Virus record (IMG/VR): IMGVR_UViG_2529292735_000024
Span: 1 to 9,883 of that record
Direction: 5' to 3' (one strand)
DNA length: 9,883 nt
From: a virus
Taxonomy: Duplodnaviria > Heunggongvirae > Uroviricota > Caudoviricetes
The translations under genes were made by a program, and so were the position numbers. Below are positions 1-9,883 of this stretch, piece by piece (position 1 is the stretch's first letter; each line of letters opens with the position of its first letter). Under the pieces are notes generated by a model. The model saw only the letters and a program-made list of their open reading frames with translations, was not told the DNA's origin and did no database searches.

Positions 1-761
1 CTTTTCACGAATAACCGCCATCAGGCTGGCGTAATGCGCGTCATTGTGGATGTGCTGGCGCAGCCAGGCTTCATCATGGCGATGTTCGATAATGGTATTG
101 GCGATGTGGTGACTGGTACGCATACCGTTAGTGGCCATCACCGACAGTACGGCATCGGCCATCAGGGAAACGCCTACGTGTGGATCGCAAAACACCTGGC
201 TGATACCTGCCAGTTGCCCCTGAACCTTTGCCACATCCAGCGTGGTTCCGCCCAAATCCACAATCAGCAGGATTCAAACGGACTCATGTCAGCCAGTGCC
301 TTAAAGCCAGCCGGAATGGATTCAGGCATAACCCGCACGTTACGGATAGTGAATGCTTCGCCGTTCTGGTACTCCACCGGGCGCATAACGTTCGCTTTTT
401 TGCGGCTGATGTTGGCCATGTCCGGCTGTGCGTTTGTGTCGAAATACTCGCTCAGTGGCAGGGTGACAACCACATCCACCTCCTGTGGCGTGATGCCTGA
501 TTTGACCAGCGCGTGATGAATGGCAATGACATTCACATCGCTGTACTGGTATTGCGTGTCGGTCGTCTGGACAAAGCGATCGCTGACCGGATCAAAACCA
601 TAGCGCACGCCATCAAGCATGTAGTTCGCGGGCTGCGTGCCACCGAACGGCGCAGACCATTCCGACTTGAAGCTGTTCGGGCTGATGGCGTTGCGGCGTT
701 CGCCGTTCTCAGTCCATGCCAGCTTGATGTTGGTGGAGCCGTCGTCGATACAAATTTTCAT
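1..761 (-). pseudogene. ParM/StbA-family actin-like ATPase, apparently frameshifted, 3' end beyond window start
   Basis: ORF 264..761 (-) begins MKICIDDGSTNIKLAW and continues ...VMPESIPAGF, matching the N-terminal half of plasmid R1 ParM as I remember it. That frame stops at 264..266, but a different minus-strand frame over 1..263 translates as LLIVDLGGTTLDVAKVQGQLAGISQVFCDPHVGVSLMADAV...IIEHRHDEAWLRQHIHN with no stop, matching the next part of ParM (IIDLGGTTLDISQV...GVSL...IIIHRKD). The junction is consistent with a 1-nt loss in a short C/G run near 268..271. RBS AGGAA 7 nt upstream of the ATG at 761. Confidence 0.6.
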
Positions 762-792
762 GTCGCTTTTCCTTATGTTGATTAATTAATCG

Positions 793-828
793 TTTACGGG
801 ATTCTGAAATCCCGTTTTTGCCTGTTTT
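793..828 (+). repeat. Hairpin-containing repeat unit 1 (stem 796..803 / 808..815, then T5), terminator-like on + strand
   Basis: acgggatt-ctga-aatcccgt followed by ttttt, lying between the gene A stop (838) and the parM-like start (761). Imperfect direct repeat of 866..900. Confidence 0.5.
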
Positions 829-837
829 GTGCGCGCT

Positions 838-3678
838 TCATATATCGCTGCGCGTTTTTTGGTCATTTACGGGATTCGTGAGTCCCGTTTCTGTCTGTTT
901 TTTGTTTCCGCTGGTCAGGCCACCCCGCAGCAGGTCTGCTTTGCGGCGGGCGCGTTCAGTGGTTTCACTGATTCTCTGTGCGTGCTCTGCGTCGCGGATG
1001 GCGCGCAGCATGTCAGAAAGCACGGTAACGGGTGTTTTCATGGTGTTCTGGTCTTGCTGAAGTGTGGATGCCAGGCGTGCGGCGGCTTCAGGGTCTGATG
1101 CCCCCAGCTGTGCCAGATAGCTGGCGACTGGGTTATGGCGGATCTCCGTGCTGCTTACGCCATGATTACGGCTCAGGCGCTGCCAGAGCTGCGTGATTCG
1201 GCTGTCCGGGCGGGTATCCGGTTTGCGTACAATTTCAAATCCCTGCGGTGCAATGATGCTGCCGTCAACGTACAGACTGCCGCCCCGTAACAGGTGCTGC
1301 ATCTGTTGTTCACCGATATGCAGGCCGAGAGATTCAGCAGACTCCCGCCATTCTTTAGCGAGTAATTCGTGGTTATCAGGCAAAGGCCGCTGCTGTTTGC
1401 GGCTCTGTGTCCAGCTCTGCATTTCATCACTGCTGTTTTTTGCCTGTTTGTCACGCAGCGAACGCATCAGCGCCCGGCGTTCGTGCCGTTTCAGTGAGCG
1501 CATCCATTCGTTCACTTCAACGCCGTCAGGGAGCTGCGGCCACGGTGCTGGCCGTTCTTCCGGCTGTTCTGTCCCGTTGTTGTCCGTTTCCTGTACACGG
1601 GGACAGTTATTGCCACGAGTCCAAGGGGCGGCAGGGCCGCCCTGAAGGTCAAAACCATTTTCGCGGGCGCTGTCTTCCGCTTCCGGTTTGCGTCTTACCA
1701 GCTTCCAGTTATCCGGATGCGTGCACACACGGGAGGATTCCCCGATGAGTGGTGACCAGATCCCGTAAATCTGTACGCTCTGTTCGCCGTAATCGTTCAG
1801 CTCATCGGCGAGGTCGTAGGCGGTGCGAATCAGGTAGTCCTTGCGTGGAACAAGTACGCCGCCCTGTTTCTCTATGTAGGTGGCAAAACATCCGGCATCA
1901 GCGGCAGCGAGTACCGCATCCATTGCGTCATCCTTCAGCCGTTGCGGGCCTTCCGGGTTGCGTGCCATCTGGCTGGCAAGGCGGCGGAGTTCACGCCACA
2001 CCTGACGGGAGGGGATGCCAAAGAACTGGAACTGGCGGACCCGGTGAAGGCGCGCCCAGCCGATGGCGCGCTCCACGCTCTCGGCCATTGATTTTCCGGT
2101 TTCGTGGTCAACGCGTGGTTTGCCCGTTTTTGGGTCGATGCCATCCACGGCGCGGCTGTCCAGGTTCTTTCCGATGTAGGTGGCGATGTAGCTGGTTGGC
2201 GTGCCTTTTGAGCCGTCTACATACTCCGCCTTAAAGCGCGGAGTAATATCATCGCCCAGCTCGTGACGATCTTCCTGAATGGCAATATCGCGGGTGTGGG
2301 ACACAATGGTGTCGATTTCTTCCGGATGGGCAAAGACCATCATATGCCAGTGTACGGTGCCGTCATGGTGAGGCTCCACCGTGCGGATGCCATACCAGCG
2401 CAGGCCGTCGCGGTTCAGTTTTTTGCGGACCGCCGCAAAAAACGTGTTAACCAGATAATCGCTGGAGTCGCGCATGGTGGCCCCGTTCCATTTGGGGTTC
2501 GGATGACCGTTCTCCGTTGTTGCGTGGTATTTTGACGGGCAGGTGACAGTCAGAAACACCGCTTTGTCACCACGGGCTTCGGCCAGAAGTTCCAGCCCCT
2601 TCATGGTGGCCATCATTTCTGCCTTACGGTGAACCGGGTTACTTACTCCCGCGTAATACACTGTCTCGAGATCAATCGTGAACCCGTCTTCGTTTTCCAG
2701 CATGAAACTTTTCAGGAAATCGCGTGTTTTCTCGCGCTGTGCGCGAAACTCGCTTAACGCGTCCTGGCTCAGATAGGGTGATGTTTTTCTGGAAACCAGA
2801 CAGGCGGCGCGGAGTTGTTCTTCTCTCCACTCGCAACGTAACAGCCACAGTTTGCGTTTCCACCATTCCGCACAGGTCAGGCGAAGGATTGCGCCCGGCA
2901 GCAGCTCCGTGTCCGGTTCGTTCCTCCGGTCTTTGTCTGTTGTCAGTGCGTCATAATGTGGAGGCATGGCGTGCAGGTGTAACGCCATGCGGGCCAGCAT
3001 CTGATACGCCTTCAGCGTTACATCCATGGTCAGTTCGCCATCAGTCGCGCCAAAGCCATCGCAGAGTTTTTCGAAGGTGCTGCTGAACATCGCCGCCGTC
3101 ATGGTGGCCAGCGTCTGTATCTGGTGTTTGTTGAGCTGCGGCAGGTAAAGCAAATCGTCCAGGCGTTCGCGTCCGGCAAGGGAGCGATAACCCGGTGTCA
3201 GCCAGCGGCTGTCGGTGCGGTCCAGACGTTCGAATATTTTGCGCAGGGTTCCGCGTGCATAGCGTTCCGCCTGCCAGCTCTTTTTGCCTTTCTGACGATC
3301 GGCTTCCTGCTTCTTGCGCAGGAAAGAGAGGTGGCGGCTCAGAGGCTCTCGCAGATAAACGGGAAGCGCCTTCAGTGTGGCAAAGGCACGGGCTACCGGG
3401 TCTTGTTCTGTTGCCCGGCGCTTACTGATGATGCTCTGTGCCAGCTTTTCACGCTGTCCGGCTTCCTCAAGGGATGCCATGAGTTTTTTACCCACGGTGG
3501 ATTGTGCGAAAAAGGCTTCTTCCTTCGCTTCCTGTTCTTCCTGTGCCCTTTTGTCCGCCTCAAGGTAGTAACGGATGGCGCGTTGCAGGTCGGTTTCAGT
3601 TTCCTGCCTGCGCTCCGTAAATCTGGCCGGATCAATGGCTGGCCGTGGTTCATTCCAGCTCCATGCAAACTCACTCAT
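838..3678 (-). CDS. A: Replication initiation endonuclease, phage P2 gpA family (HUH rolling-circle initiator), about 946 aa
   Basis: Long minus-strand ORF with motifs LTVTCPSKYH, VEPHHDGTVHWHMMVF (HUH-type metal motif) and TSYIATYIGKNLD (paired catalytic Tyr), as I remember for P2 gpA. Start placed at ATG 3678 (MSEFAWSWNEPRP) because it overlaps the upstream gene's stop as ATGA; the track's start at 3705 is an in-frame alternative. Confidence 0.85.
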   Translation of the reverse strand: MSEFAWSWNEPRPAIDPARFTERRQETETDLQRAIRYYLEADKRAQEEQEAKEEAFFAQSTVGKKLMASLEEAGQREKLAQSIISKRRATEQDPVARAFATLKALPVYLREPLSRHLSFLRKKQEADRQKGKKSWQAERYARGTLRKIFERLDRTDSRWLTPGYRSLAGRERLDDLLYLPQLNKHQIQTLATMTAAMFSSTFEKLCDGFGATDGELTMDVTLKAYQMLARMALHLHAMPPHYDALTTDKDRRNEPDTELLPGAILRLTCAEWWKRKLWLLRCEWREEQLRAACLVSRKTSPYLSQDALSEFRAQREKTRDFLKSFMLENEDGFTIDLETVYYAGVSNPVHRKAEMMATMKGLELLAEARGDKAVFLTVTCPSKYHATTENGHPNPKWNGATMRDSSDYLVNTFFAAVRKKLNRDGLRWYGIRTVEPHHDGTVHWHMMVFAHPEEIDTIVSHTRDIAIQEDRHELGDDITPRFKAEYVDGSKGTPTSYIATYIGKNLDSRAVDGIDPKTGKPRVDHETGKSMAESVERAIGWARLHRVRQFQFFGIPSRQVWRELRRLASQMARNPEGPQRLKDDAMDAVLAAADAGCFATYIEKQGGVLVPRKDYLIRTAYDLADELNDYGEQSVQIYGIWSPLIGESSRVCTHPDNWKLVRRKPEAEDSARENGFDLQGGPAAPWTRGNNCPRVQETDNNGTEQPEERPAPWPQLPDGVEVNEWMRSLKRHERRALMRSLRDKQAKNSSDEMQSWTQSRKQQRPLPDNHELLAKEWRESAESLGLHIGEQQMQHLLRGGSLYVDGSIIAPQGFEIVRKPDTRPDSRITQLWQRLSRNHGVSSTEIRHNPVASYLAQLGASDPEAAARLASTLQQDQNTMKTPVTVLSDMLRAIRDAEHAQRISETTERARRKADLLRGGLTSGNKKQTETGLTNPVNDQKTRSDI
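866..900 (+). repeat. Hairpin-containing repeat unit 2 (stem 869..876 / 881..888, then T-rich tract), inside the 3' end of gene A
   Basis: tttacgggattcgtgagtcccgtttctgtctgtttt aligns to unit 1 at roughly 85% identity, about 73 bp away. Confidence 0.45.
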
Positions 3679-4064
3679 GGCTGGTATCCCATCACGCGCT
3701 GCCACTCCTGCGAGAAGAGGGTGGAAAGGCGGTTAAATTCAGCGGTGTATTCACTCAGCGAGGCACACCCGCCAGCAGTGCGATGCGCCAGCATTGCCGC
3801 GAATACGGAGGCCGGGGAGTCGTAATACGCCAGCAGTGATTCGCCGTGTGGTGTCAGGCAGTGCAACGCCAGCCCGTGTGGTGTGAAGTCCACGCGGTAG
3901 CAGTCGTCTACTGTGAAATAAAGGGTGTCCGCATTCTCCGGTTTTGTAGTGCGTGCTCTGTTGTCACGACCACGGATGTAAAGATCAAATAATCCCTGAA
4001 GAACGGGAGCCAGACGGGTGTCCTGTGTGCGCACCCATCTTGTGAAGTCATGAGCGTCAATCAT
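3675..4064 (-). CDS. Hypothetical early-operon protein (129 aa), translationally coupled to gene A
   Basis: ORF with protein-like composition; its stop overlaps the gene A start (ATGA at 3675..3678). Contains a duplicated TPHG motif encoded by an 11-bp direct repeat. No family recognised. Confidence 0.55.
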   Translation of the reverse strand: MIDAHDFTRWVRTQDTRLAPVLQGLFDLYIRGRDNRARTTKPENADTLYFTVDDCYRVDFTPHGLALHCLTPHGESLLAYYDSPASVFAAMLAHRTAGGCASLSEYTAEFNRLSTLFSQEWQRVMGYQP

Positions 4065-4136
4065 GCTGCAATTCTCTTTACTACAGATGTGCGAAGGCCT
4101 CCCGCCGCAAGGTGCAGGAAAGGCCCGGAACAGGAA

Positions 4137-4367
4137 TTAATGGAGTTTGTTTTGCTGCTGGATGAGCTGCTGAAGCTCGCGCAGATCATCCGCCAGATAG
4201 CTGAAAACAGCGGATGAGTAGAGGTTTGAAAGTTCGCAGCTACGCTCATGCAGCATATTGATGTGCATGATTTTAGCGACGCGGAATGCGCGGGAAAGTC
4301 TGCGGTTGATTTCAGTCTGGATGTGACGACGCTCCGCGATAGCGCGGTGCTGTTTGCGGTTTGCCAT
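4137..4367 (-). CDS. Hypothetical small basic protein (76 aa)
   Basis: MANRKQHRAIAERRHIQTEINRRLSRAF... is charged and helical in character. SD AGAGG sits 9 nt upstream of the ATG at 4367. Function unknown. Confidence 0.55.
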   Translation of the reverse strand: MANRKQHRAIAERRHIQTEINRRLSRAFRVAKIMHINMLHERSCELSNLYSSAVFSYLADDLRELQQLIQQQNKLH

Positions 4368-4375
4368 GATATGTG

Positions 4376-4700
4376 GCCTCTTGTAGTAAGTTGTGAAAAC
4401 TCACCATCCAGAGGTTCCAAGCTCGGGGTGGTGAGACGTACAGGGTTGGAACTACCGGCTACAAGAGATCCCGGCCCGACCGAAATCGGCCCCGTACGCC
4501 CCACCATAATTCGTGTGCGAAAAAGACGTGGCAATACAGTACGCACAAAAAAACCGCTGGCGCGGTTGTGCGCTCTTGTAGTCTGCGGGGTTCCAATCCC
4601 GGCACCCGTTTTATGAGGTGCAGCGGAAATGTAACCTGACTGATTGCGGCATGGCAAGCGGTTTTTTTGTGAGAACGGCATACTAAAAAATCCTGATGCT
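4376..4700 (-). other. Structured non-coding region between the SPFH cassette and the 76-aa gene (candidate leader or regulatory RNA)
   Basis: About 330 bp without a convincing ORF. The 9-mer ctcttgtag occurs at 4378..4386 and 4573..4581 and its complement ctacaagag at 4459..4467; ggttccaa at 4413..4420 and 4589..4596 with ttggaac at 4446..4452; A7 at 4547..4553, T7 at 4662..4668, A6 at 4685..4690. Confidence 0.4.
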
Positions 4701-4703
4701 GCT

Positions 4704-4728
4704 CCGGCCAGCGGTTTCCACTGGCCGG
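4704..4728 (-). terminator. GC-rich hairpin just downstream of the SPFH gene stop (possible terminator or RNA-stability element)
   Basis: ccggccag (4704..4711) pairs with ctggccgg (4721..4728), 9-nt loop with two more possible G-C pairs. On the sense (minus) strand a U6 tract follows only after about 14 nt, so it is not a canonical intrinsic terminator. Confidence 0.4.
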
Positions 4729-4734
4729 GTTTAA

Positions 4735-5565
4735 TTACTTCACCGGAACAAACGGAACAGCGGTATTACTGGTCATGTATTGCGGCAGCGTGCCGTTCCA
4801 TTTGTTGATAGCTTCCAGCTCCATAACGCCGGGGTTCTGGCGCAGAGCTTCACCGCGCAAACGAATGGCGTCGGCTTCAGCCTGGGCTTTTGTGCGAATG
4901 GCATCAGCCTGTCCGGCTGCTTCTGCGCGTAGCATGTTGGCTTCTGCTTCGCGCTGCTTGACTTCCTGTTCGCGTTGCAGAGTTTTCTGGTTTGCCGTGA
5001 CTTTGGCATTAATGCTGTCGATAACGGTTGGTGGGTATTCCGGTTTACCGACATAAGAGAGGCTCATTACCTGAATGCCGATAGGTGTCATTTCTGCCTG
5101 AATGTCTTTAAGTGCTGAATCCAGCAGTTCAGACTTGCCACCGTCGATAAACTTATCGGTGGTCATTTTGCTGGCCAGTCGGTTGAGTGCATCGGCGATC
5201 TTTTGGCGCAGGTCAGTGTCGGTAATGTCATCCACGCCTTTGCGGTAGGTCTGAAACACTGTGGTAACTTTGGATGGATCAACCTTGTAGGCCACACCGA
5301 TGTGATAGCCGATGGTTGTGCCGTCACTCATCTGAAAGCTGAATGGCTCATCGTAGGTCTTCATTTGTTTGAAGGTCGGGAAGATGTAAACCTCGGTATT
5401 CCAGCCTGTCCAGTAGCGGCCAACGCCAACCACTTCACCGACGCCTTTATCGTCGCCCAGTTTGTTGACTTTGATGCCCACATTACCTGGCTCAACGCGA
5501 TCGCAACCAACCAGCAGGATGGCGGCAAAAAGCGGGATAATCTGAAAGAGTTTGAATTTCTTCAT
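4735..5565 (-). CDS. SPFH/Band-7 (stomatin/prohibitin/HflC-like) domain lipoprotein, 276 aa
   Basis: N-terminus MKKFKLFQIIPLFAAILLVGC is a signal peptide with lipobox LVGC. The body has an SPFH-like core followed by an A/E/Q/R-rich coiled-coil tail (REQEVKQREAEANMLRAEAAGQADAIRTKAQAEADAIRLRGEAL). SD AGGAA 8 nt upstream; start overlaps the upstream stop as ATGA. Confidence 0.8.
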   Translation of the reverse strand: MKKFKLFQIIPLFAAILLVGCDRVEPGNVGIKVNKLGDDKGVGEVVGVGRYWTGWNTEVYIFPTFKQMKTYDEPFSFQMSDGTTIGYHIGVAYKVDPSKVTTVFQTYRKGVDDITDTDLRQKIADALNRLASKMTTDKFIDGGKSELLDSALKDIQAEMTPIGIQVMSLSYVGKPEYPPTVIDSINAKVTANQKTLQREQEVKQREAEANMLRAEAAGQADAIRTKAQAEADAIRLRGEALRQNPGVMELEAINKWNGTLPQYMTSNTAVPFVPVK

Positions 5566-5765
5566 TGTTTGATTTCCTTGATGTACTTACTGAAAAGGCG
5601 AACAACGCCTGCCGGGTACAGCATGGCAATGAAAATGCCCAGCAATACCAGGAAGGAGCTGTCTGATGAAATCATTCGGGGGAGTAGTCCTGCATACAGA
5701 ATGAGAGAAAAGAGGACGCATACCAGCGCCCACATGTATGCGCGAAACCAGGTCCTTTCGTTCAT
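5562..5765 (-). CDS. Small two-TM membrane protein (67 aa), partner of the SPFH lipoprotein
   Basis: Two hydrophobic segments (WALVCVLFSLILYAGLL and FLVLLGIFIAMLYPAGVV). ATGA overlap with the upstream gene at 5762..5765 and with the SPFH gene at 5562..5565. Confidence 0.65.
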   Translation of the reverse strand: MNERTWFRAYMWALVCVLFSLILYAGLLPRMISSDSSFLVLLGIFIAMLYPAGVVRLFSKYIKEIKQ

Positions 5766-5980
5766 GTCGGTTGCTCTCTTTTGTTATTCAGGAAAAAGTC
5801 AAAAACGTTATCGATGCGCATCATGAGTTCGCGCTGCATCGCTTCTGGTGTTTCTGGTTCGCCAGGTGATCCAAACCCAGCGAAGAAATCACCGATCTCG
5901 CTTTGAATGAGTTCCTTTAGTGTTGGCGGGGAGCTCAGGCGTGTGCGGCGATGTCTGCGTGTAATTCTCCTTCTGTTCAT
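5762..5980 (-). CDS. Small protein with arginine-rich N-terminus (72 aa), first gene of the SPFH cassette
   Basis: MNRRRITRRHRRTRLS... followed by an acidic/hydrophobic C-terminal part. SD AGGAG 8 nt upstream of the ATG at 5980 but embedded in a hairpin. Coding status less certain than its neighbours. Confidence 0.5.
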   Translation of the reverse strand: MNRRRITRRHRRTRLSSPPTLKELIQSEIGDFFAGFGSPGEPETPEAMQRELMMRIDNVFDFFLNNKREQPT

Positions 5981-6019
5981 CCGTGTGACTCCTGTAACTG
6001 TCGGACAGGGCTCACACGG
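5981..6019 (-). promoter_or_regulatory. Stable hairpin abutting the start codon of the cassette's first gene, occluding its SD
   Basis: Outer stem ccgtgtga (5981..5988) / tcacacgg (6012..6019), inner stem cctgt (5991..5995) / acagg (6005..6009), 9-nt loop. On the minus-sense RNA the SD aggag (complement of 5989..5993) lies within the paired region. Confidence 0.45.
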
Positions 6020-6095
6020 AATGGCAGTGATTTTTGGGTAGACATTCTTTGTACGGCAGTCGTCAGTTCACGTGGTTCCTGGTGGTTGATGGTGC

Positions 6096-6362
6096 TCATG
6101 CTCTGGCTTCCTTCAGTAGCTGGTTAAACATGTGGGTTAGTGGGTTGCCACACCCGAACGGCATCGGGTTTACGTGGTAAGAAGCCTGGCCTCCAGTTTT
6201 GCGAGCGCGACCACCTGTGCTGCGGTTTGTTCTGATGACTAAGCCGCCGCGCCAAAGTTGGCGTAACTCAGCATTAATGGCTGTGGTTGGAGTATTCAGT
6301 GCTGCGGCGATCTCTCCGCCGCTACACCCCGGATGAGTAGCGATGTAGTCCAGAATGGTCAT
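6096..6362 (-). CDS. Hypothetical protein, possible HTH/winged-helix DNA-binding protein (88 aa)
   Basis: MTILDYIATHPGCSGGEIAAALNTPTTAINAELRQLWRGGLV resembles an HTH recognition region. ATGA overlap with the upstream gene at 6359..6362. Confidence 0.55.
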   Translation of the reverse strand: MTILDYIATHPGCSGGEIAAALNTPTTAINAELRQLWRGGLVIRTNRSTGGRARKTGGQASYHVNPMPFGCGNPLTHMFNQLLKEARA

Positions 6363-6562
6363 CTGCGTGGCTCCTGTACCTGTCGGATAAGGTTTACCCG
6401 CGCCACATTAGTGGCGCAGAAGTAAGTGCCGTCAGTGAGGTAGATGTGGTGTGCATCCTTTTCCGAACGATGTTTGTCGATAGTGGTAATCAGGCGTTCG
6501 TCGACCTCGTATTCGCGCCCTCTGGAGGTAAAGCGAACGACGGGAAAATGCTTAATTGCCAT
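6359..6562 (-). CDS. Hypothetical early-operon protein (67 aa)
   Basis: ORF with a G-rich SD (aaggggg) upstream; translationally coupled to the downstream 88-aa gene. Confidence 0.5.
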   Translation of the reverse strand: MAIKHFPVVRFTSRGREYEVDERLITTIDKHRSEKDAHHIYLTDGTYFCATNVARVNLIRQVQEPRR

Positions 6563-6585
6563 TGCGCCCCCTTTGTCCAGTAACT

Positions 6586-6996
6586 CTATGCGTTAAATAC
6601 GGTGCACTGTGCGTCATCAATGAATGCGACTTGAGAGCGCTCTATCAGGCGGAGATTTGTCAGAATTTCTGATTCCCTTATGGGGTGAGGAGTGATCAGG
6701 TATTTATCCTGTAACCCGGCGATAATGGTGTATCGCTGTAGCTCCGAGCCAATTGTGTAAATAAGGCGTCCGGTGTTAGACAAATCCAGTCCGGTGACTG
6801 GTTGTGTTCTGAGAACCGCCAGTTCAGCATCCTGTTTTGCGATAATTTCGGCTGCTTCTGCCGTGACTCTTGCGACTATCAGTGTGTGGGTTGCGACGTC
6901 CATATGTGCATTTGCCACGGCTTTTTTCGCTACTTCGTTTTCTGTCTTTGAAATTTCTTTCAGTGCTCTGATGATACCTTCTTCTTTTGCGTGCAT
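6586..6996 (-). CDS. Hypothetical early-operon protein (136 aa)
   Basis: Strong SD GGAGA 8 nt upstream of the ATG at 6996; protein-like composition; no family recognised. Confidence 0.6.
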   Translation of the reverse strand: MHAKEEGIIRALKEISKTENEVAKKAVANAHMDVATHTLIVARVTAEAAEIIAKQDAELAVLRTQPVTGLDLSNTGRLIYTIGSELQRYTIIAGLQDKYLITPHPIRESEILTNLRLIERSQVAFIDDAQCTVFNA

Positions 6997-7089
6997 TTTT
7001 GTATCTCCGTTATTTGCGTGTGCGAATACCTCCGTTAATACGGAAGGTTTTCACGTTTTCTTATTTAATTTGATGCTTTATTTGTATCG

Positions 7090-7203
7090 TTATTCACCAG
7101 TGAAAAAGCGTTCAATCTTTTTTACTGAATGAATAATTCGCATAATCCCAATGGCGCAGGCCACCGAAATAATCAGAACAAGCCATGAGATAAATATACT
7201 CAT
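7090..7203 (-). CDS. Small hydrophobic membrane peptide (37 aa), absent from the ORF track
   Basis: Hand translation of the minus strand gives MSIFISWLVLIISVACAIGIMRIIHSVKKIERFFTGE then stop: one TM-like helix plus a basic tail. Its ATG (7201..7203) overlaps the stop of the 80-aa gene as ATGA (7200..7203). Confidence 0.4.
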   Translation of the reverse strand: MSIFISWLVLIISVACAIGIMRIIHSVKKIERFFTGE

Positions 7204-7442
7204 GCGATATTCCCCAGCTTATACGGTTCAATATGTTCCCCGCATTCTGCGGCACAGATCAGCTCGGAAAGTTCGTTAAGTGCATCCAGATCATCAGCGT
7301 AAAAAGCGACGTCATACAAACTCCGGATTGCCCTGGTCAATGAGTCACGGGCTGCACGTTCAGCATGAGCGCCTGATGCACTTAAGCGAAAATAAAATCG
7401 TTCAAGTGCTTTGTTAATGAGAGTTTTATATTCTTTGCCCAT
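7200..7442 (-). CDS. Hypothetical early-operon protein (80 aa)
   Basis: ORF with SD AAGGG 7 nt upstream of the ATG at 7442; no family recognised. Confidence 0.5.
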   Translation of the reverse strand: MGKEYKTLINKALERFYFRLSASGAHAERAARDSLTRAIRSLYDVAFYADDLDALNELSELICAAECGEHIEPYKLGNIA

Positions 7443-7453
7443 CGCAACGCCCT

Positions 7454-7732
7454 TTAATCTGCTTTCTGTATTTCAGCTTCTGAATCCATACAAATAATTT
7501 CGATATATGGTTCATCGCCATTAACCTGACGTGCCTTTTCAGCTTCGCTAATGATTTCTCGCACGGTCTGGTACGGAAGCTCCACAGTCAGGCGCGTACC
7601 GTTCAGATAAACGTAAGTAGCTGCGTTTTTTTCGGATGGAACAACTCCGTCAATGGCTGATGCGCGTAATAACAGTTCACCGCGAAAATCAATAAAACGG
7701 ATAAATACACCTTGTGCATGCTCTTTGGTCAT
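7454..7732 (-). CDS. Hypothetical early-operon protein (about 92 aa; start moved to internal ATG 7732)
   Basis: The track ORF 7454..7792 would overlap the upstream gene by about 50 bp. The internal ATG at 7732 (MTKEHAQGVFIRF...) follows the upstream stop by 10 nt and has AGGTG upstream. Confidence 0.5.
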   Translation of the reverse strand: MTKEHAQGVFIRFIDFRGELLLRASAIDGVVPSEKNAATYVYLNGTRLTVELPYQTVREIISEAEKARQVNGDEPYIEIICMDSEAEIQKAD

Positions 7733-7742
7733 AAAGCACCTG

Positions 7743-8084
7743 TTATAAATCAGCCTGTTTAATAAAACTTTGCCCACGAAGCAGACGATCAACCGTGCGA
7801 AGTGCTTCGTATAATGTGAAATCCTGCCCGAATTGATTGTCGCCGCAGCTCAATGCAAAAATGCGGTTTCCGGTAAACGGATTGCGTGGGCATTTATGGA
7901 CCACGATTCCAGCTTTCTCAATCAGCCAGGCATGCTCGCCGATTTGTTTTACTGGGTAGCCATCCGGCGTTGCGTGTGTATCACTCAGGCTGTAGCGGAT
8001 GTTGCTGCGTGATGCACTGGTAGCGAAACGGTTAGCGTGGCGTTCAGCACCATTACGAAAGCGTGAATTACGTTGCTGTTTCAT
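7743..8084 (-). CDS. Hypothetical early-operon protein (113 aa), first gene after the Cox-position regulator
   Basis: SD GGGAG 7 nt upstream of the ATG at 8084; 18-nt gap after the upstream stop; no family recognised. Confidence 0.55.
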   Translation of the reverse strand: MKQQRNSRFRNGAERHANRFATSASRSNIRYSLSDTHATPDGYPVKQIGEHAWLIEKAGIVVHKCPRNPFTGNRIFALSCGDNQFGQDFTLYEALRTVDRLLRGQSFIKQADL

Positions 8085-8102
8085 ATCAAAACTCCCTGCA
8101 TC

Positions 8103-8429
8103 TCATGCAGCAAAATTAAGAAAGCCTAATCCCAAATCTTCCGCCAGCTTCTTGGCTTTCTTAAGCCAGTGATTGCGCCAATCTTTACGCTCAGGAGGAA
8201 GCTGTTTCGTTGCGTCATAGACCATTTCGAGCCACTCATTCCAAAGGATGAGAAGACGGCGCGAACTCCCTTCCTCGCCTAAAACCTCGCGCTCAGTAGT
8301 TAGAGGGATGAGTCGACGCTCTACCAACTTTCTTACGGCTGATTCGGTCTTACCTGTGCGGCGGGAAAACTCATCGACGGTGATGGGGTCTGGGATCTTA
8401 AACAATGCCCTCAATAGTTCTTCATTCAT
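8103..8429 (-). CDS. Cox-position HTH DNA-binding regulator / putative excisionase (about 108 aa)
   Basis: Divergent from the repressor gene, as cox is in P2-like phages. HTH-like segment ITVDEFSRRTGKTESAVRKLVERRLIP. Start set at ATG 8429 (MNEELLRALF) with SD GGGAG 8 nt upstream; the track start at 8498 looks like an upstream extension. By my recollection it does not closely resemble P2 Cox in sequence. Confidence 0.6.
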   Translation of the reverse strand: MNEELLRALFKIPDPITVDEFSRRTGKTESAVRKLVERRLIPLTTEREVLGEEGSSRRLLILWNEWLEMVYDATKQLPPERKDWRNHWLKKAKKLAEDLGLGFLNFAA

Positions 8430-8524
8430 GTGATAATCTCCCTGTTTGGGGTATTTCTTGCGACGGATGCCCCAAATCAAACTCATTTGTATAAACATTA
8501 ATACAGACGTTGGAGAATTGCAAC
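8430..8524. promoter_or_regulatory. Lysis-lysogeny switch region between the divergent regulator and repressor genes (putative early and repressor promoters and operators)
   Basis: A 95-bp AT-rich interval. Minus-strand candidate promoter: TTGCAA (complement of about 8518..8523) then TATTAAT-like -10 about 15 bp downstream. Inverted repeats tttgggg (8443..8449) / ccccaaa (8470..8476) and gtat/atac around 8489..8504. Exact promoters and operators cannot be fixed from sequence alone. Confidence 0.45.
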
Positions 8525-8827
8525 ATGCGTATGACTATTGGAGAGCGCATAAAAATCATGCGTGAAAGCGAGAGACTTACTAGCCTCCCGGATACAGCAA
8601 AAATGCTTGGTTTAAACCGTGATGCTCTGTGGAGATATGAAAGCGGTAAAACTATCCCTAATGCTGAAGTAATTGAGCAAATACTAAACAACCCCAGATT
8701 TGAGAAATATGCGTTGTGGTTTATGACTGGGAAAATTGCGCCTGAATCCGGGCAGATAGCTCCGGCTCTCGCACACTATGGGCAAGAGCCAACGGACTTA
8801 CCCCCATCCGAAAGGAAAATTGGCTAA
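8525..8827 (+). CDS. C: Immunity repressor, P2 C-like (about 100 aa)
   Basis: MRMTIGERIKIMRESERLTSLPDTAKMLGL...ALWFMTGKIAPESGQIAPALAHYGQ closely resembles P2 C as I remember it. Start set at ATG 8525 with GGAG 9 nt upstream; the track's start at 8510 is a TTG. Confidence 0.85.
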   Translation: MRMTIGERIKIMRESERLTSLPDTAKMLGLNRDALWRYESGKTIPNAEVIEQILNNPRFEKYALWFMTGKIAPESGQIAPALAHYGQEPTDLPPSERKIG

Positions 8828-8893
8828 CCCTTTATTATTCTTACGTTTTACAAACTGGAAATGTCTTTCCTCGTTTCACCGGAGGGCTTGCCA

Positions 8894-9883
8894 ATGGCAA
8901 TTAAAGCGCTCGATGGTGGACGGTATAAAGTGGATGTTAGACCGCGTGGCCGAAGTGGACGTCGGATTCAGCGGATTTTTAAGAAAAAGGCAGATGCAGT
9001 GGCCTTTGAGCGTTATGTTCTCAGCCACATGCACGATAAGGAATGGCTTGAAAAGCCAACAGAGCAACGTCATCTCTCAGATCTGCTTCCGTTATGGTGG
9101 GAATTGGGTGGACGCAATAAGCCATATGCTAACGGCGTTCTAACCAGGTTGAAAAAAATCATCAAAGAAATGAATGATCCAAGGGTTAGCCAGATTAATG
9201 CTCGTTTCATGGCCGCTTATCGAAGCTCCCGTTTATCCTTGGGAGTAAAAGAGTCTACTGTTCGGCGTGATGAGTCGGATCTCGGAGGAATGTTTACACT
9301 CCTGGCAAATGCCGGGGAATTTCACGGAGAAAATCCGCTCCGCGCCCTCCCCTCTTTGAAACGAAAATCACCCGAAATGACGTATCTCACCACGGAAGAA
9401 ATCGCCAAATTACTGGATGCAGTAAGCGGTGATGCCCGGCGGATTACGCTACTTTGTCTCAGTACTGGGGCGAGATGGGGAGAAGCGAAAAATCTGCGCG
9501 CGGAACACATCATCAATAATCGCGTGACGTTTAACAAAACTAAAAACGGAAAAGTTCGAATTATTCCTGTCTCTGATGAAGTTGTTAGTGAGATCAAAAC
9601 AAAGAAATCCGGCCTTTTGTTTGACGTCAATTATGAGGAATATCGCAAGGTGCTTCGCAGTGTTAAGCCAGACCTACCAAAAGGACAGGCTGTACATGTT
9701 CTACGCCATACCTTTGCTGCTCACTTTATGATTAATGGAGGAAATATACTTACGCTCCAGCGAATTATGGGGCACGCTACGATCCAGCAAACTATGACCT
9801 ATGCGCACCTCGCTCCTGATTTCCTCCAGGATGCAATTTCACTTAATCCGTTAAAAGGAGGCATCCACATTTCATCCACATAA
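8894..9883 (+). CDS. int: Tyrosine integrase, P2 Int-like (329 aa)
   Basis: From MAIKALDGGRYKVDVRPRGRSGRRIQRIF the protein parallels P2 Int (MAIKKLDDGRYEVDIRP...) and carries the catalytic-region motifs LSTGARWGEA, HVLRHTFAAHFMINGG and LGHATIQQTMTYAHL. SD GGAGGG 7 nt upstream of ATG 8894; the track start at 8861 is an in-frame upstream ATG. The stop is the last codon of the window. Confidence 0.9.
   Translation: MAIKALDGGRYKVDVRPRGRSGRRIQRIFKKKADAVAFERYVLSHMHDKEWLEKPTEQRHLSDLLPLWWELGGRNKPYANGVLTRLKKIIKEMNDPRVSQINARFMAAYRSSRLSLGVKESTVRRDESDLGGMFTLLANAGEFHGENPLRALPSLKRKSPEMTYLTTEEIAKLLDAVSGDARRITLLCLSTGARWGEAKNLRAEHIINNRVTFNKTKNGKVRIIPVSDEVVSEIKTKKSGLLFDVNYEEYRKVLRSVKPDLPKGQAVHVLRHTFAAHFMINGGNILTLQRIMGHATIQQTMTYAHLAPDFLQDAISLNPLKGGIHISST

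Follow-up and report, generated by a model that had tools for sequence, protein, structure and literature searches.

The stretch of DNA analysed here (the window) comprises 9,883 nucleotides (nt), positions 1 to 9,883 of the IMG/VR record IMGVR_UViG_2529292735_000024, a virus of the Caudoviricetes. On its minus strand lies an open reading frame (ORF) of 37 codons, whose start codon overlaps the stop codon of an upstream gene of the DUF4754 family. Judged from the comparison of related sequences, this frame is a genuine, conserved protein-coding gene with a predicted single-pass membrane product. An earlier note, made from the letters of the window, had placed a 37-amino acid (aa) ORF at 7090-7203 with an ATGA overlap on an early 80-aa gene. 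This observation is confirmed, and the ORF turned out to be a genuine coding one; the interpretation offered with it is partly supported. The ORF, its upstream partner, the signals at their junction and the parts of the predicted product are as follows.

7090..7203, minus strand: small protein gene, 37 codons plus TAA, product MSIFISWLVLIISVACAIGIMRIIHSVKKIERFFTGE
7200..7442, minus strand: upstream partner gene, DUF4754, 80 aa (Pfam PF15946, E = 2.8e-54)
7200..7203, minus strand: ATGA start/stop overlap, putative translational coupling signal with the DUF4754 gene
7215-7211, minus strand: GGGGA Shine-Dalgarno (SD)-like motif in the 3' end of the DUF4754 gene, 7 nt 5' of the ATG
7141..7197, minus strand: predicted transmembrane (TM) helix IFISWLVLIISVACAIGIM, codons 3-21, from hydropathy
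7093..7140, minus strand: basic juxtamembrane stretch and tail, codons 22-37 (R22, K28, K29, R32, then FFTGE)

The ATG of the 37-codon ORF (7203-7201) shares bases with the TGA (7202-7200) of the 80-aa gene (7200..7442, minus strand). Stop codons occur in all five other frames of 7090..7203, so that the frame of the ORF is the sole open one. From the base composition, the chance of finding an A before the TGA followed by 36 open codons was estimated at ~0.05 per gene junction, and therefore the ORF is weak, i.e. not significant, from one sequence alone. This chance of ~5% per junction would favour the view that the frame is not a gene at all, but is open by chance and conserved through the youth of the DNA or through a constraint on the nucleic acid. 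The same view gains from the fact that most of the sequences available for comparison (the window and 94 related loci from phage records, IMG/VR contigs and genomes; n = 95) are closely related to each other (85-99% DNA identity). It is the comparative evidence, from these relatives and from distant homologues, that takes the ORF beyond chance expectation.

Among the 95 sequences, the ORF encodes 37 aa in 84 cases, 45 aa in eight and 30 aa in two, and is disrupted in one. It is intact through codon 30 in 94/95 sequences and is kept in distant lineages as well (see below), thus passing the check for stops and frameshifts in relatives that the earlier note had proposed; the ATGA is kept in 94/94 scorable sequences. 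The sole disrupted copy belongs to phage 503458, a record with several local indels and a truncated DUF4754 gene, which for this reason is probably an error-prone assembly. The segregating changes in codons 1-33 comprise 17 synonymous and 17 non-synonymous ones, the expected synonymous fraction being 0.23-0.26 (binomial p = 4e-4 to 3e-3), and the non-synonymous replacements are largely conservative (V/I/A/L/M swaps). The pairwise ratio of the proportions of non-synonymous (pN) and synonymous (pS) differences is 0.22 in the frame of the ORF versus 0.97-1.58 in four other frames; the ratio is low (0.26) in a single antisense frame, which uses the same wobble positions, and stops are present in all three antisense frames. 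These substitutions fit purifying selection acting on the encoded peptide. An overlapping 47-aa ORF in an alternative frame (7112..7255, minus strand) was rejected, as pN/pS is >1 in that frame.

The length variants of the peptide originate from two homopolymeric runs, a T run at 7101-7105 and an A run at 7113-7118 (minus-strand codons 28-29 and 33-34). A T5 to T4 change swaps FFTGE for an unrelated 12-residue tail and results in the widespread 45-aa form. The 30-aa forms are those of phage Chuche, with a stop at codon 31, and of E. coli EC130, in which an A6 to A7 change shifts the frame (labelled "frameshifted" by the annotation pipeline PGAP). In E. coli E2386 (NZ_CM180505.1), an IS1 element is inserted in the DUF4754 gene directly upstream; the small ORF is intact there and annotated as WP_000021655.1.

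Distant homologues are few. When 1.84 billion representatives were searched exhaustively with HMMER, only nine proteins were returned, among them 41-aa forms that are 68, 57 or 54% identical and one of 59 aa that is 47% identical. These four homologues are all found in P2-like prophages, each with a 4-nt overlap behind an 80-aa DUF4754-type gene (3762-4004 and from 4001 onwards), and the genes flanking the pair vary among the four loci. The two lineages compared with complete genomes (L095 and L103) are E. coli prophages. The ATGA is kept in five divergent lineages. Between the window and the divergent lineages, the uncorrected pS is 0.55-0.81 and the pN of the peptide gene 0.20-0.36 (pN/pS 0.33-0.58), whereas the pN of the DUF4754 gene against the same lineages is 0.46-0.54, except for the mosaic locus L102 with its window-like DUF4754 gene. 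The peptide is therefore the better-conserved member of the pair. In the divergent lineages, the frame remains open and the TM sequence is retained; the tail is changed only in the L100 form, and the 41-aa homologues retain it as IExLFTG[DE]. Furthermore, purine-rich motifs (GGAG, GGGG or GAGG) are found at the same distance before the ATG, though the C-terminal residues of DUF4754 that are encoded there differ. Loci L101 and L102, in each of which the gene pair occupies 3762-4126, have the same peptide gene (pS = 0) next to highly diverged DUF4754 alleles (pS 0.75, pN 0.42), which indicates that recombination had its breakpoint at the ATGA junction or close to it.

A chance frame or young, merely unbroken DNA would account neither for the excess of synonymous changes nor for an open frame and a retained TM sequence at a pS of 0.55-0.81, and the ORF is, in addition, predicted by the gene callers of many pipelines. 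On these sequence comparisons, the possibility that there is no gene here is very remote and already largely refuted, and we regard the existence of the gene and the membrane nature of its product as highly probable.

As for the product, residues 3-21 have a Kyte-Doolittle mean of 2.68 and a summed value of -2.9 kcal/mol on the Hessa scale, corresponding to one TM segment. The AlphaFold2 model is one continuous helix spanning residues 2-34, with a predicted local distance difference test score (pLDDT) of 91.8. The tail RIIHSVKKIERFFTGE contains four K/R and two D/E residues, and the N-terminus of the peptide is uncharged; based on the positive-inside rule, the protein would thus be a bitopic inner-membrane protein with the N-terminus outside and the C-terminus inside (N-out/C-in). 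One predicted TM helix followed by a basic C-terminal tail, as proposed in the earlier note, is therefore what hydropathy, structure prediction and charge count all point to. Family-wide, residues M1, S6, W7, L10 and I24 are invariant, and F4, I11, A17, G19, I20, M21, R22, I23 and K28 are nearly so. The periodicity of conservation peaks at 100-110 degrees and is weak (permutation p = 0.044). As the extreme C-terminus is plastic, the indispensable unit appears to consist of the TM helix and the juxtamembrane basic residues.

Over the region from which the window derives, Escherichia phages vB_EcoM-569R5 and 705R2 share 97% identity and Citrobacter phage Shae_phiSM 96%, and phage P88 is 92% identical to a part of the window. 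All matching phages belong to Peduoviridae, with the majority assigned to Xuanwuvirus. By sequence identity and gene content, the window represents the early operon of an E. coli prophage of the P2 family that resembles P88 (Xuanwuvirus). Besides the pair described above, it contains the following genes.

8861-9883, plus strand: integrase (Pfam)
8510-8827, plus strand: helix-turn-helix repressor (Pfam)
8103-8429, minus strand: Cox-like protein (Pfam Phage_Cox, 25.3 bits, slightly below the cut-off of 27.5)
7743-8084, minus strand: DUF4761 protein (Pfam)
838-3705, minus strand: replication protein GPA (Pfam)

A MarR-type winged helix-turn-helix protein was also matched by Pfam within the window. 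The genes on the minus strand are arranged in the order cox-like gene, DUF4761 gene, a 92-aa gene, DUF4754 gene, the 37-codon gene, accessory genes and replication gene A. The 37-codon ORF is accordingly gene number 5 of a P2-type early operon layout, and the phage records are syntenic with P88 and its relatives. By analogy with this P2 layout, the gene would be expressed early and repressed by C.

The protein itself is not new, being annotated in public records as a hypothetical protein or a membrane protein. In P88 it is gp07, "membrane protein" (YP_009113050.1), with 100% identity over 37 aa (tblastn) and the same ATGA overlap after DUF4754. In tblastn, 100% identity over 37 aa was also found for Citrobacter phage Shae_phiSM, and 82-97% for other Xuanwuvirus phages. 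The record of phage 569R5 lists a "putative membrane protein", and those of P884B11, PhiR44_2 (45-aa form) and Chuche (30-aa form) a "hypothetical protein"; in RefSeq genomes of E. coli the ORF is WP_000021656.1 or WP_000021655.1, and UniRef sometimes labels the protein as "Prophage membrane protein" (e.g., A0A069FJJ5_ECOLX). The P88-family names for the 37-aa protein are computational annotations. The exact protein sequence occurs on at least 1000 contigs of a public protein collection, and the public cluster has 183 members. Since public records annotate the ORF, the word "unannotated" in the earlier note holds only for the gene track available to its author. The records of phages 520873, 503458 and Shae_phiSM do omit the ORF. 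In the literature, the P88 paper does not discuss the gp07 gene, and a CFT073 Ribo-seq preprint does not cover the prophage analysed here.

With a query of 421 nt (7040-7460) that spans the ORF, the DUF4754 gene and their flanks, the locus was found in 1362 of 5426 complete E. coli genomes, O157 and ST131 strains among them. A further copy is present on a 226-kb contig labelled Vagococcus sp. WN89Y (NZ_JBQPOM010000071.1), which has a DUF4754 protein with 98% identity, the small ORF and ~93% DNA identity over the locus. This is probably a case of contamination or of a mislabelled assembly.

What might such a protein do? By analogy with P2, the gene would be transcribed from the early promoter Pe, which C silences in the lysogen and which becomes active when lytic growth begins. 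Translation would proceed by coupling, i.e. by termination-reinitiation together with the internal SD motif, and because of this coupling the peptide would be made together with the DUF4754 protein. It would then insert into the inner membrane with its N-terminus out and its C-terminus in, and act via the conserved TM helix (S6, W7, L10, A17, G19, I20, I24) through a helix-helix contact with a host or phage membrane protein; its short tail on the cytoplasmic side may serve as a docking site for the DUF4754 protein, which is soluble and acidic. To the composite of an early-expressed small membrane protein that is coupled to DUF4754 and acts through its TM helix, being neither a holin nor an antisense-controlled toxin, we would assign about an even chance. 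Its more specific part, the modulation of a partner by helix-helix contact, is proposed only tentatively.

Small single-TM proteins commonly bind larger membrane proteins (PMC12648545), and according to passages in the literature on small single-TM regulators their function resides in the TM helix (PMC12648545; PMC6051672). Like the 37-aa peptide, the proteins MgrB (acting on PhoQ), SidA, YneA and SPO1 gp56 have one TM helix, short tails and fewer than 50 aa (gp56 and YneA being larger), whereas no sequence similarity connects the peptide with MgrB/SidA/gp56-like modulators. SidA and YneA are division inhibitors that are bound to the membrane and induced in the SOS response. SidA and gp56 are small membrane proteins whose function lies in the TM helix, and the gene for gp56, too, is part of an early operon for host takeover, that of phage SPO1.

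Several observations weigh against the role proposed here. First, the identical peptide genes next to highly diverged DUF4754 alleles in L101 and L102 argue against a tight co-evolution of DUF4754 and the peptide. Second, the tail can be replaced by a frameshift (45 aa) or lost by truncation (30 aa), which weakens the case for a specific contact between tail and DUF4754. Third, the promoter scan was uninformative (3 sites versus 3.7 expected), and control by Pe is taken over from P2. Fourth, the evidence for a conserved helical face is marginal (p = 0.044), and conservation of the TM sequence is also compatible with an oligomerising pore or a toxin. Finally, no family match for the peptide was found in Pfam, PHROGs, NCBIfam or PADLOC, so that no characterised homologue can be called upon, and the literature search found no paper that mentions the peptide sequence, its accessions or DUF4754.

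The pore or toxin just mentioned has to be considered in its own right. A membrane-damaging small toxin, or functional "Kil", would oligomerise in the inner membrane and, at an early stage of lytic development, dissipate the proton-motive force or block growth or division, while remaining silent in the lysogen through repression of Pe. The size of the peptide, its single TM helix and its short charged C-terminal extension fit the general architecture of small membrane toxins, and type I toxins such as Hok/Gef, LdrD, TisB, ShoB, IbsC, DinQ and ZorO share with it the small hydrophobic form with one TM helix and a charged extension (PMC12648545). Repression of the operon, expected in the lysogen, and a conserved TM core with a dispensable tail would also suit a toxin. 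However, searches of Pfam, PHROGs, NCBIfam and PADLOC linked the peptide to no toxin or Kil family (Hok, Ldr, TisB, Ibs and Sho included), its TM segment lacks both an amphipathic character and charged residues that could line a pore, and neither an antitoxin RNA nor independent control was detected. Moreover, about one in four complete E. coli genomes carries the ORF in intact form, as does the locus with the IS1-disrupted DUF4754 gene; as it stays intact so widely, there is no sign of counter-selection. Altogether, we consider this explanation unlikely on the available sequences.

A type I toxin in the strict sense was rejected on its context. In contrast to the type I toxins, to which it has no homology, the peptide gene is translationally coupled within a phage operon, has neither a promoter of its own nor a structured 5' untranslated region (the SD motif lies inside the upstream gene), and is not accompanied by an antisense RNA. 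No Rfam antitoxin RNA was detected in 6950-7300, either at the gathering threshold or at E <= 1. The only promoter-like site on the plus strand (6948-6975, 9/12 matches) is located inside the cassette of a downstream 136-aa gene that is absent from P88-type loci, and the count of such sites is not above that in shuffled sequences.

Holins and single-gene lysis peptides (P2 gpY, lambda S, LysM of levivirus M) also share with the peptide the small membrane format and the charged C-terminus, and LysM is 37 aa long, a length that coincides with that of the peptide. A holin was nevertheless rejected, as the gene is situated between cox and replication gene A and not in a late lysis cassette beside an endolysin. 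The window contains no lysozyme or endolysin domain. Holin matches are missing in Pfam and PHROGs, and the N-terminus (MSIF...) has no second start nearby, i.e. no dual-start motif. With lambda Kil, Rac KilR and Mu Kil, the peptide would share, by synteny with the P2 early operon, the origin as a small early-operon product of a temperate phage (repression in the lysogen being presumed for the peptide). Lambda Kil has no TM helix and antagonises FtsZ as a soluble protein, and searches of PHROG, Pfam and NCBIfam gave no match to Kil families at E <= 0.1. The assignment of the peptide to the holins, Kil proteins or toxins suggested in the earlier note thus finds no family similarity on its side, and for holins and type I toxins it is contradicted by the genomic context.

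A small membrane protein of a temperate phage could also be expressed in the lysogen and cause superinfection exclusion or lysogenic conversion by blocking the entry of DNA, or a receptor or transporter on which other phages depend. Examples of small inner-membrane proteins of temperate phages that exclude superinfection are HK97 gp15 and T4 Imm. The very common occurrence of the gene in E. coli prophages and the exchangeable accessory cassettes at the neighbouring position would be in line with such a role, which is nonetheless improbable. The gene lacks a promoter of its own, none having been predicted above background, and shares 4 nt with the gene before it in a presumed early lytic operon; both members of the pair are part of the conserved core of this operon and not of its variable cassettes, and PADLOC gave no match. 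The known conversion genes of P2 (old, tin and fun) are, by comparison, separate, independently transcribed units.

Downstream of the peptide gene, a spacer with a predicted stem-loop leads to the next gene.

6997..7089, minus strand: spacer 3' of the peptide gene, 93 nt, ~82% identical to the P88 spacer
7029..7047, minus strand: conserved stem-loop CCUUCCGU-AUUA-ACGGAGG, predicted fold
6586..6996, minus strand: 136-aa gene, phrog_9338, with its own SD motif GGAG 8 nt before the ATG

That a 136-aa gene follows, as had been noted before, is correct, while the spacer measures 93 nt and not 90, and the SD motif GGAG is moderate rather than strong. The cassette of this gene (~6576-7015) is an insertion that has a conserved spacer block (...cgcacacgc) on one side and the SD motif of a 67-aa gene on the other. 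P88 has no such cassette, and L032 and L071 carry another gene at that spot; since other loci hold a different gene there, the site looks like a hot spot for the exchange of accessory genes. Being part of an accessory cassette that is absent from P88, the 136-aa gene is not a functional or obligate partner of the peptide. An intrinsic terminator or a promoter in the spacer (6997..7089) was considered and rejected, as no terminator-like or promoter-like site was predicted there. The stem-loop is present in every lineage examined, including the loci with peptides of 47-68% identity, with a conserved stem (UCCGY...RCGGAGG) and a variable loop. Its five core pairs are paired in 94/95 cells, with one compensatory pair (C:G to U:A or the reverse) and two G-U changes; it has no U-tract and no match in Rfam. 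It could be a stabiliser or processing site at the 3' end of an mRNA, a protein-binding site or a recombination linker.

These features bear on a further explanation, namely that the act of translation matters and not the peptide. The ORF would then serve for coupling or as a spacer that keeps ribosomes on the mRNA, prevents Rho-dependent polarity over the 93-nt spacer or sets the expression of the downstream cassette. The ATGA coupling, the conserved spacer and hairpin downstream, and the tolerance of the C-terminal end to frameshifts could all be understood in this way. Against this stands the purifying selection on the amino acid sequence itself (pN/pS 0.22; S6, W7, L10 and I24 invariant at 47-68% identity) and the better conservation of the peptide than of the flanking gene. 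Furthermore, the stop codon precedes the hairpin by ~42 nt, so that a terminating ribosome would be too distant to melt it, and the downstream genes have their own SD motifs. This possibility appears slight.

Returning to the peptide as an early membrane protein coupled to DUF4754, the partner gives little away. The DUF4754 protein is acidic (isoelectric point 5.3) and is modelled as a two-helix hairpin (pLDDT 88.8). A Foldseek search of this model against the Protein Data Bank returned no neighbour at E <= 0.001 (best E = 1.7, generic helical matches), and thus, for want of a structural neighbour, DUF4754 offers no functional clue. Longer "DUF4754" proteins of 103-128 aa were considered as possible fusions with the peptide and rejected; in most of them a frameshift lets the reading run on into a non-coding frame of the peptide region, and a few have N-terminal extensions. 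As they come mostly from raw assemblies, we treated them as artefacts.

Other parts of the operon deserve mention. At 4424-4511 and 4547-4621 (minus strand), Rfam detects a C4 antisense RNA (79 bits) and the Hfq-binding RNA isrK (71 bits), located directly upstream of a 76-aa gene of the "Derepression" family (4137-4367, minus strand; Pfam). This arrangement looks like a P1/P7-type, antisense-RNA-controlled antirepressor module in a P2-like prophage. At 4735-5980 (minus strand), three consecutive genes overlap with ATGA: a 72-aa ORF, a 67-aa hydrophobic ORF (5562-5765) and a gene for a 276-aa Band 7/SPFH protein (4735-5565). The latter protein has an N-terminal hydrophobic, signal-like stretch with a Cys residue (MKKFKLFQIIPLFAAILLVGC), and its homologue in P88 is annotated as "lipoprotein". 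This trio is a second membrane-associated module of the operon. SPFH proteins such as HflK/C are regulators of FtsH.

As a result of a genome scan, a gene of this kind is ordinary: annotation tracks frequently miss small ORFs, and the present one already appears in RefSeq, in UniProt and in several phage records. At the same time, it is a gene carried by about a quarter of complete E. coli genomes and better conserved than its neighbours. DUF4754 and the TM peptide might form an obligatorily coupled two-gene module for a specific early step of host takeover at the inner membrane, and thereby represent a new host-interference family; such a module could, for example, block a component of the divisome, of transport or of a protease, and be conserved across divergent P2-like prophages of E. 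coli while its neighbours are exchanged. Both of these suggestions are speculative, and we hold them to be doubtful. The stem-loop downstream of the peptide gene might mark the 3' boundary of the mRNA of such a two-gene module. Were a target of the peptide to be found, the phage effectors known at the inner membrane would gain a small new member, and DUF4754 a first functional handle.

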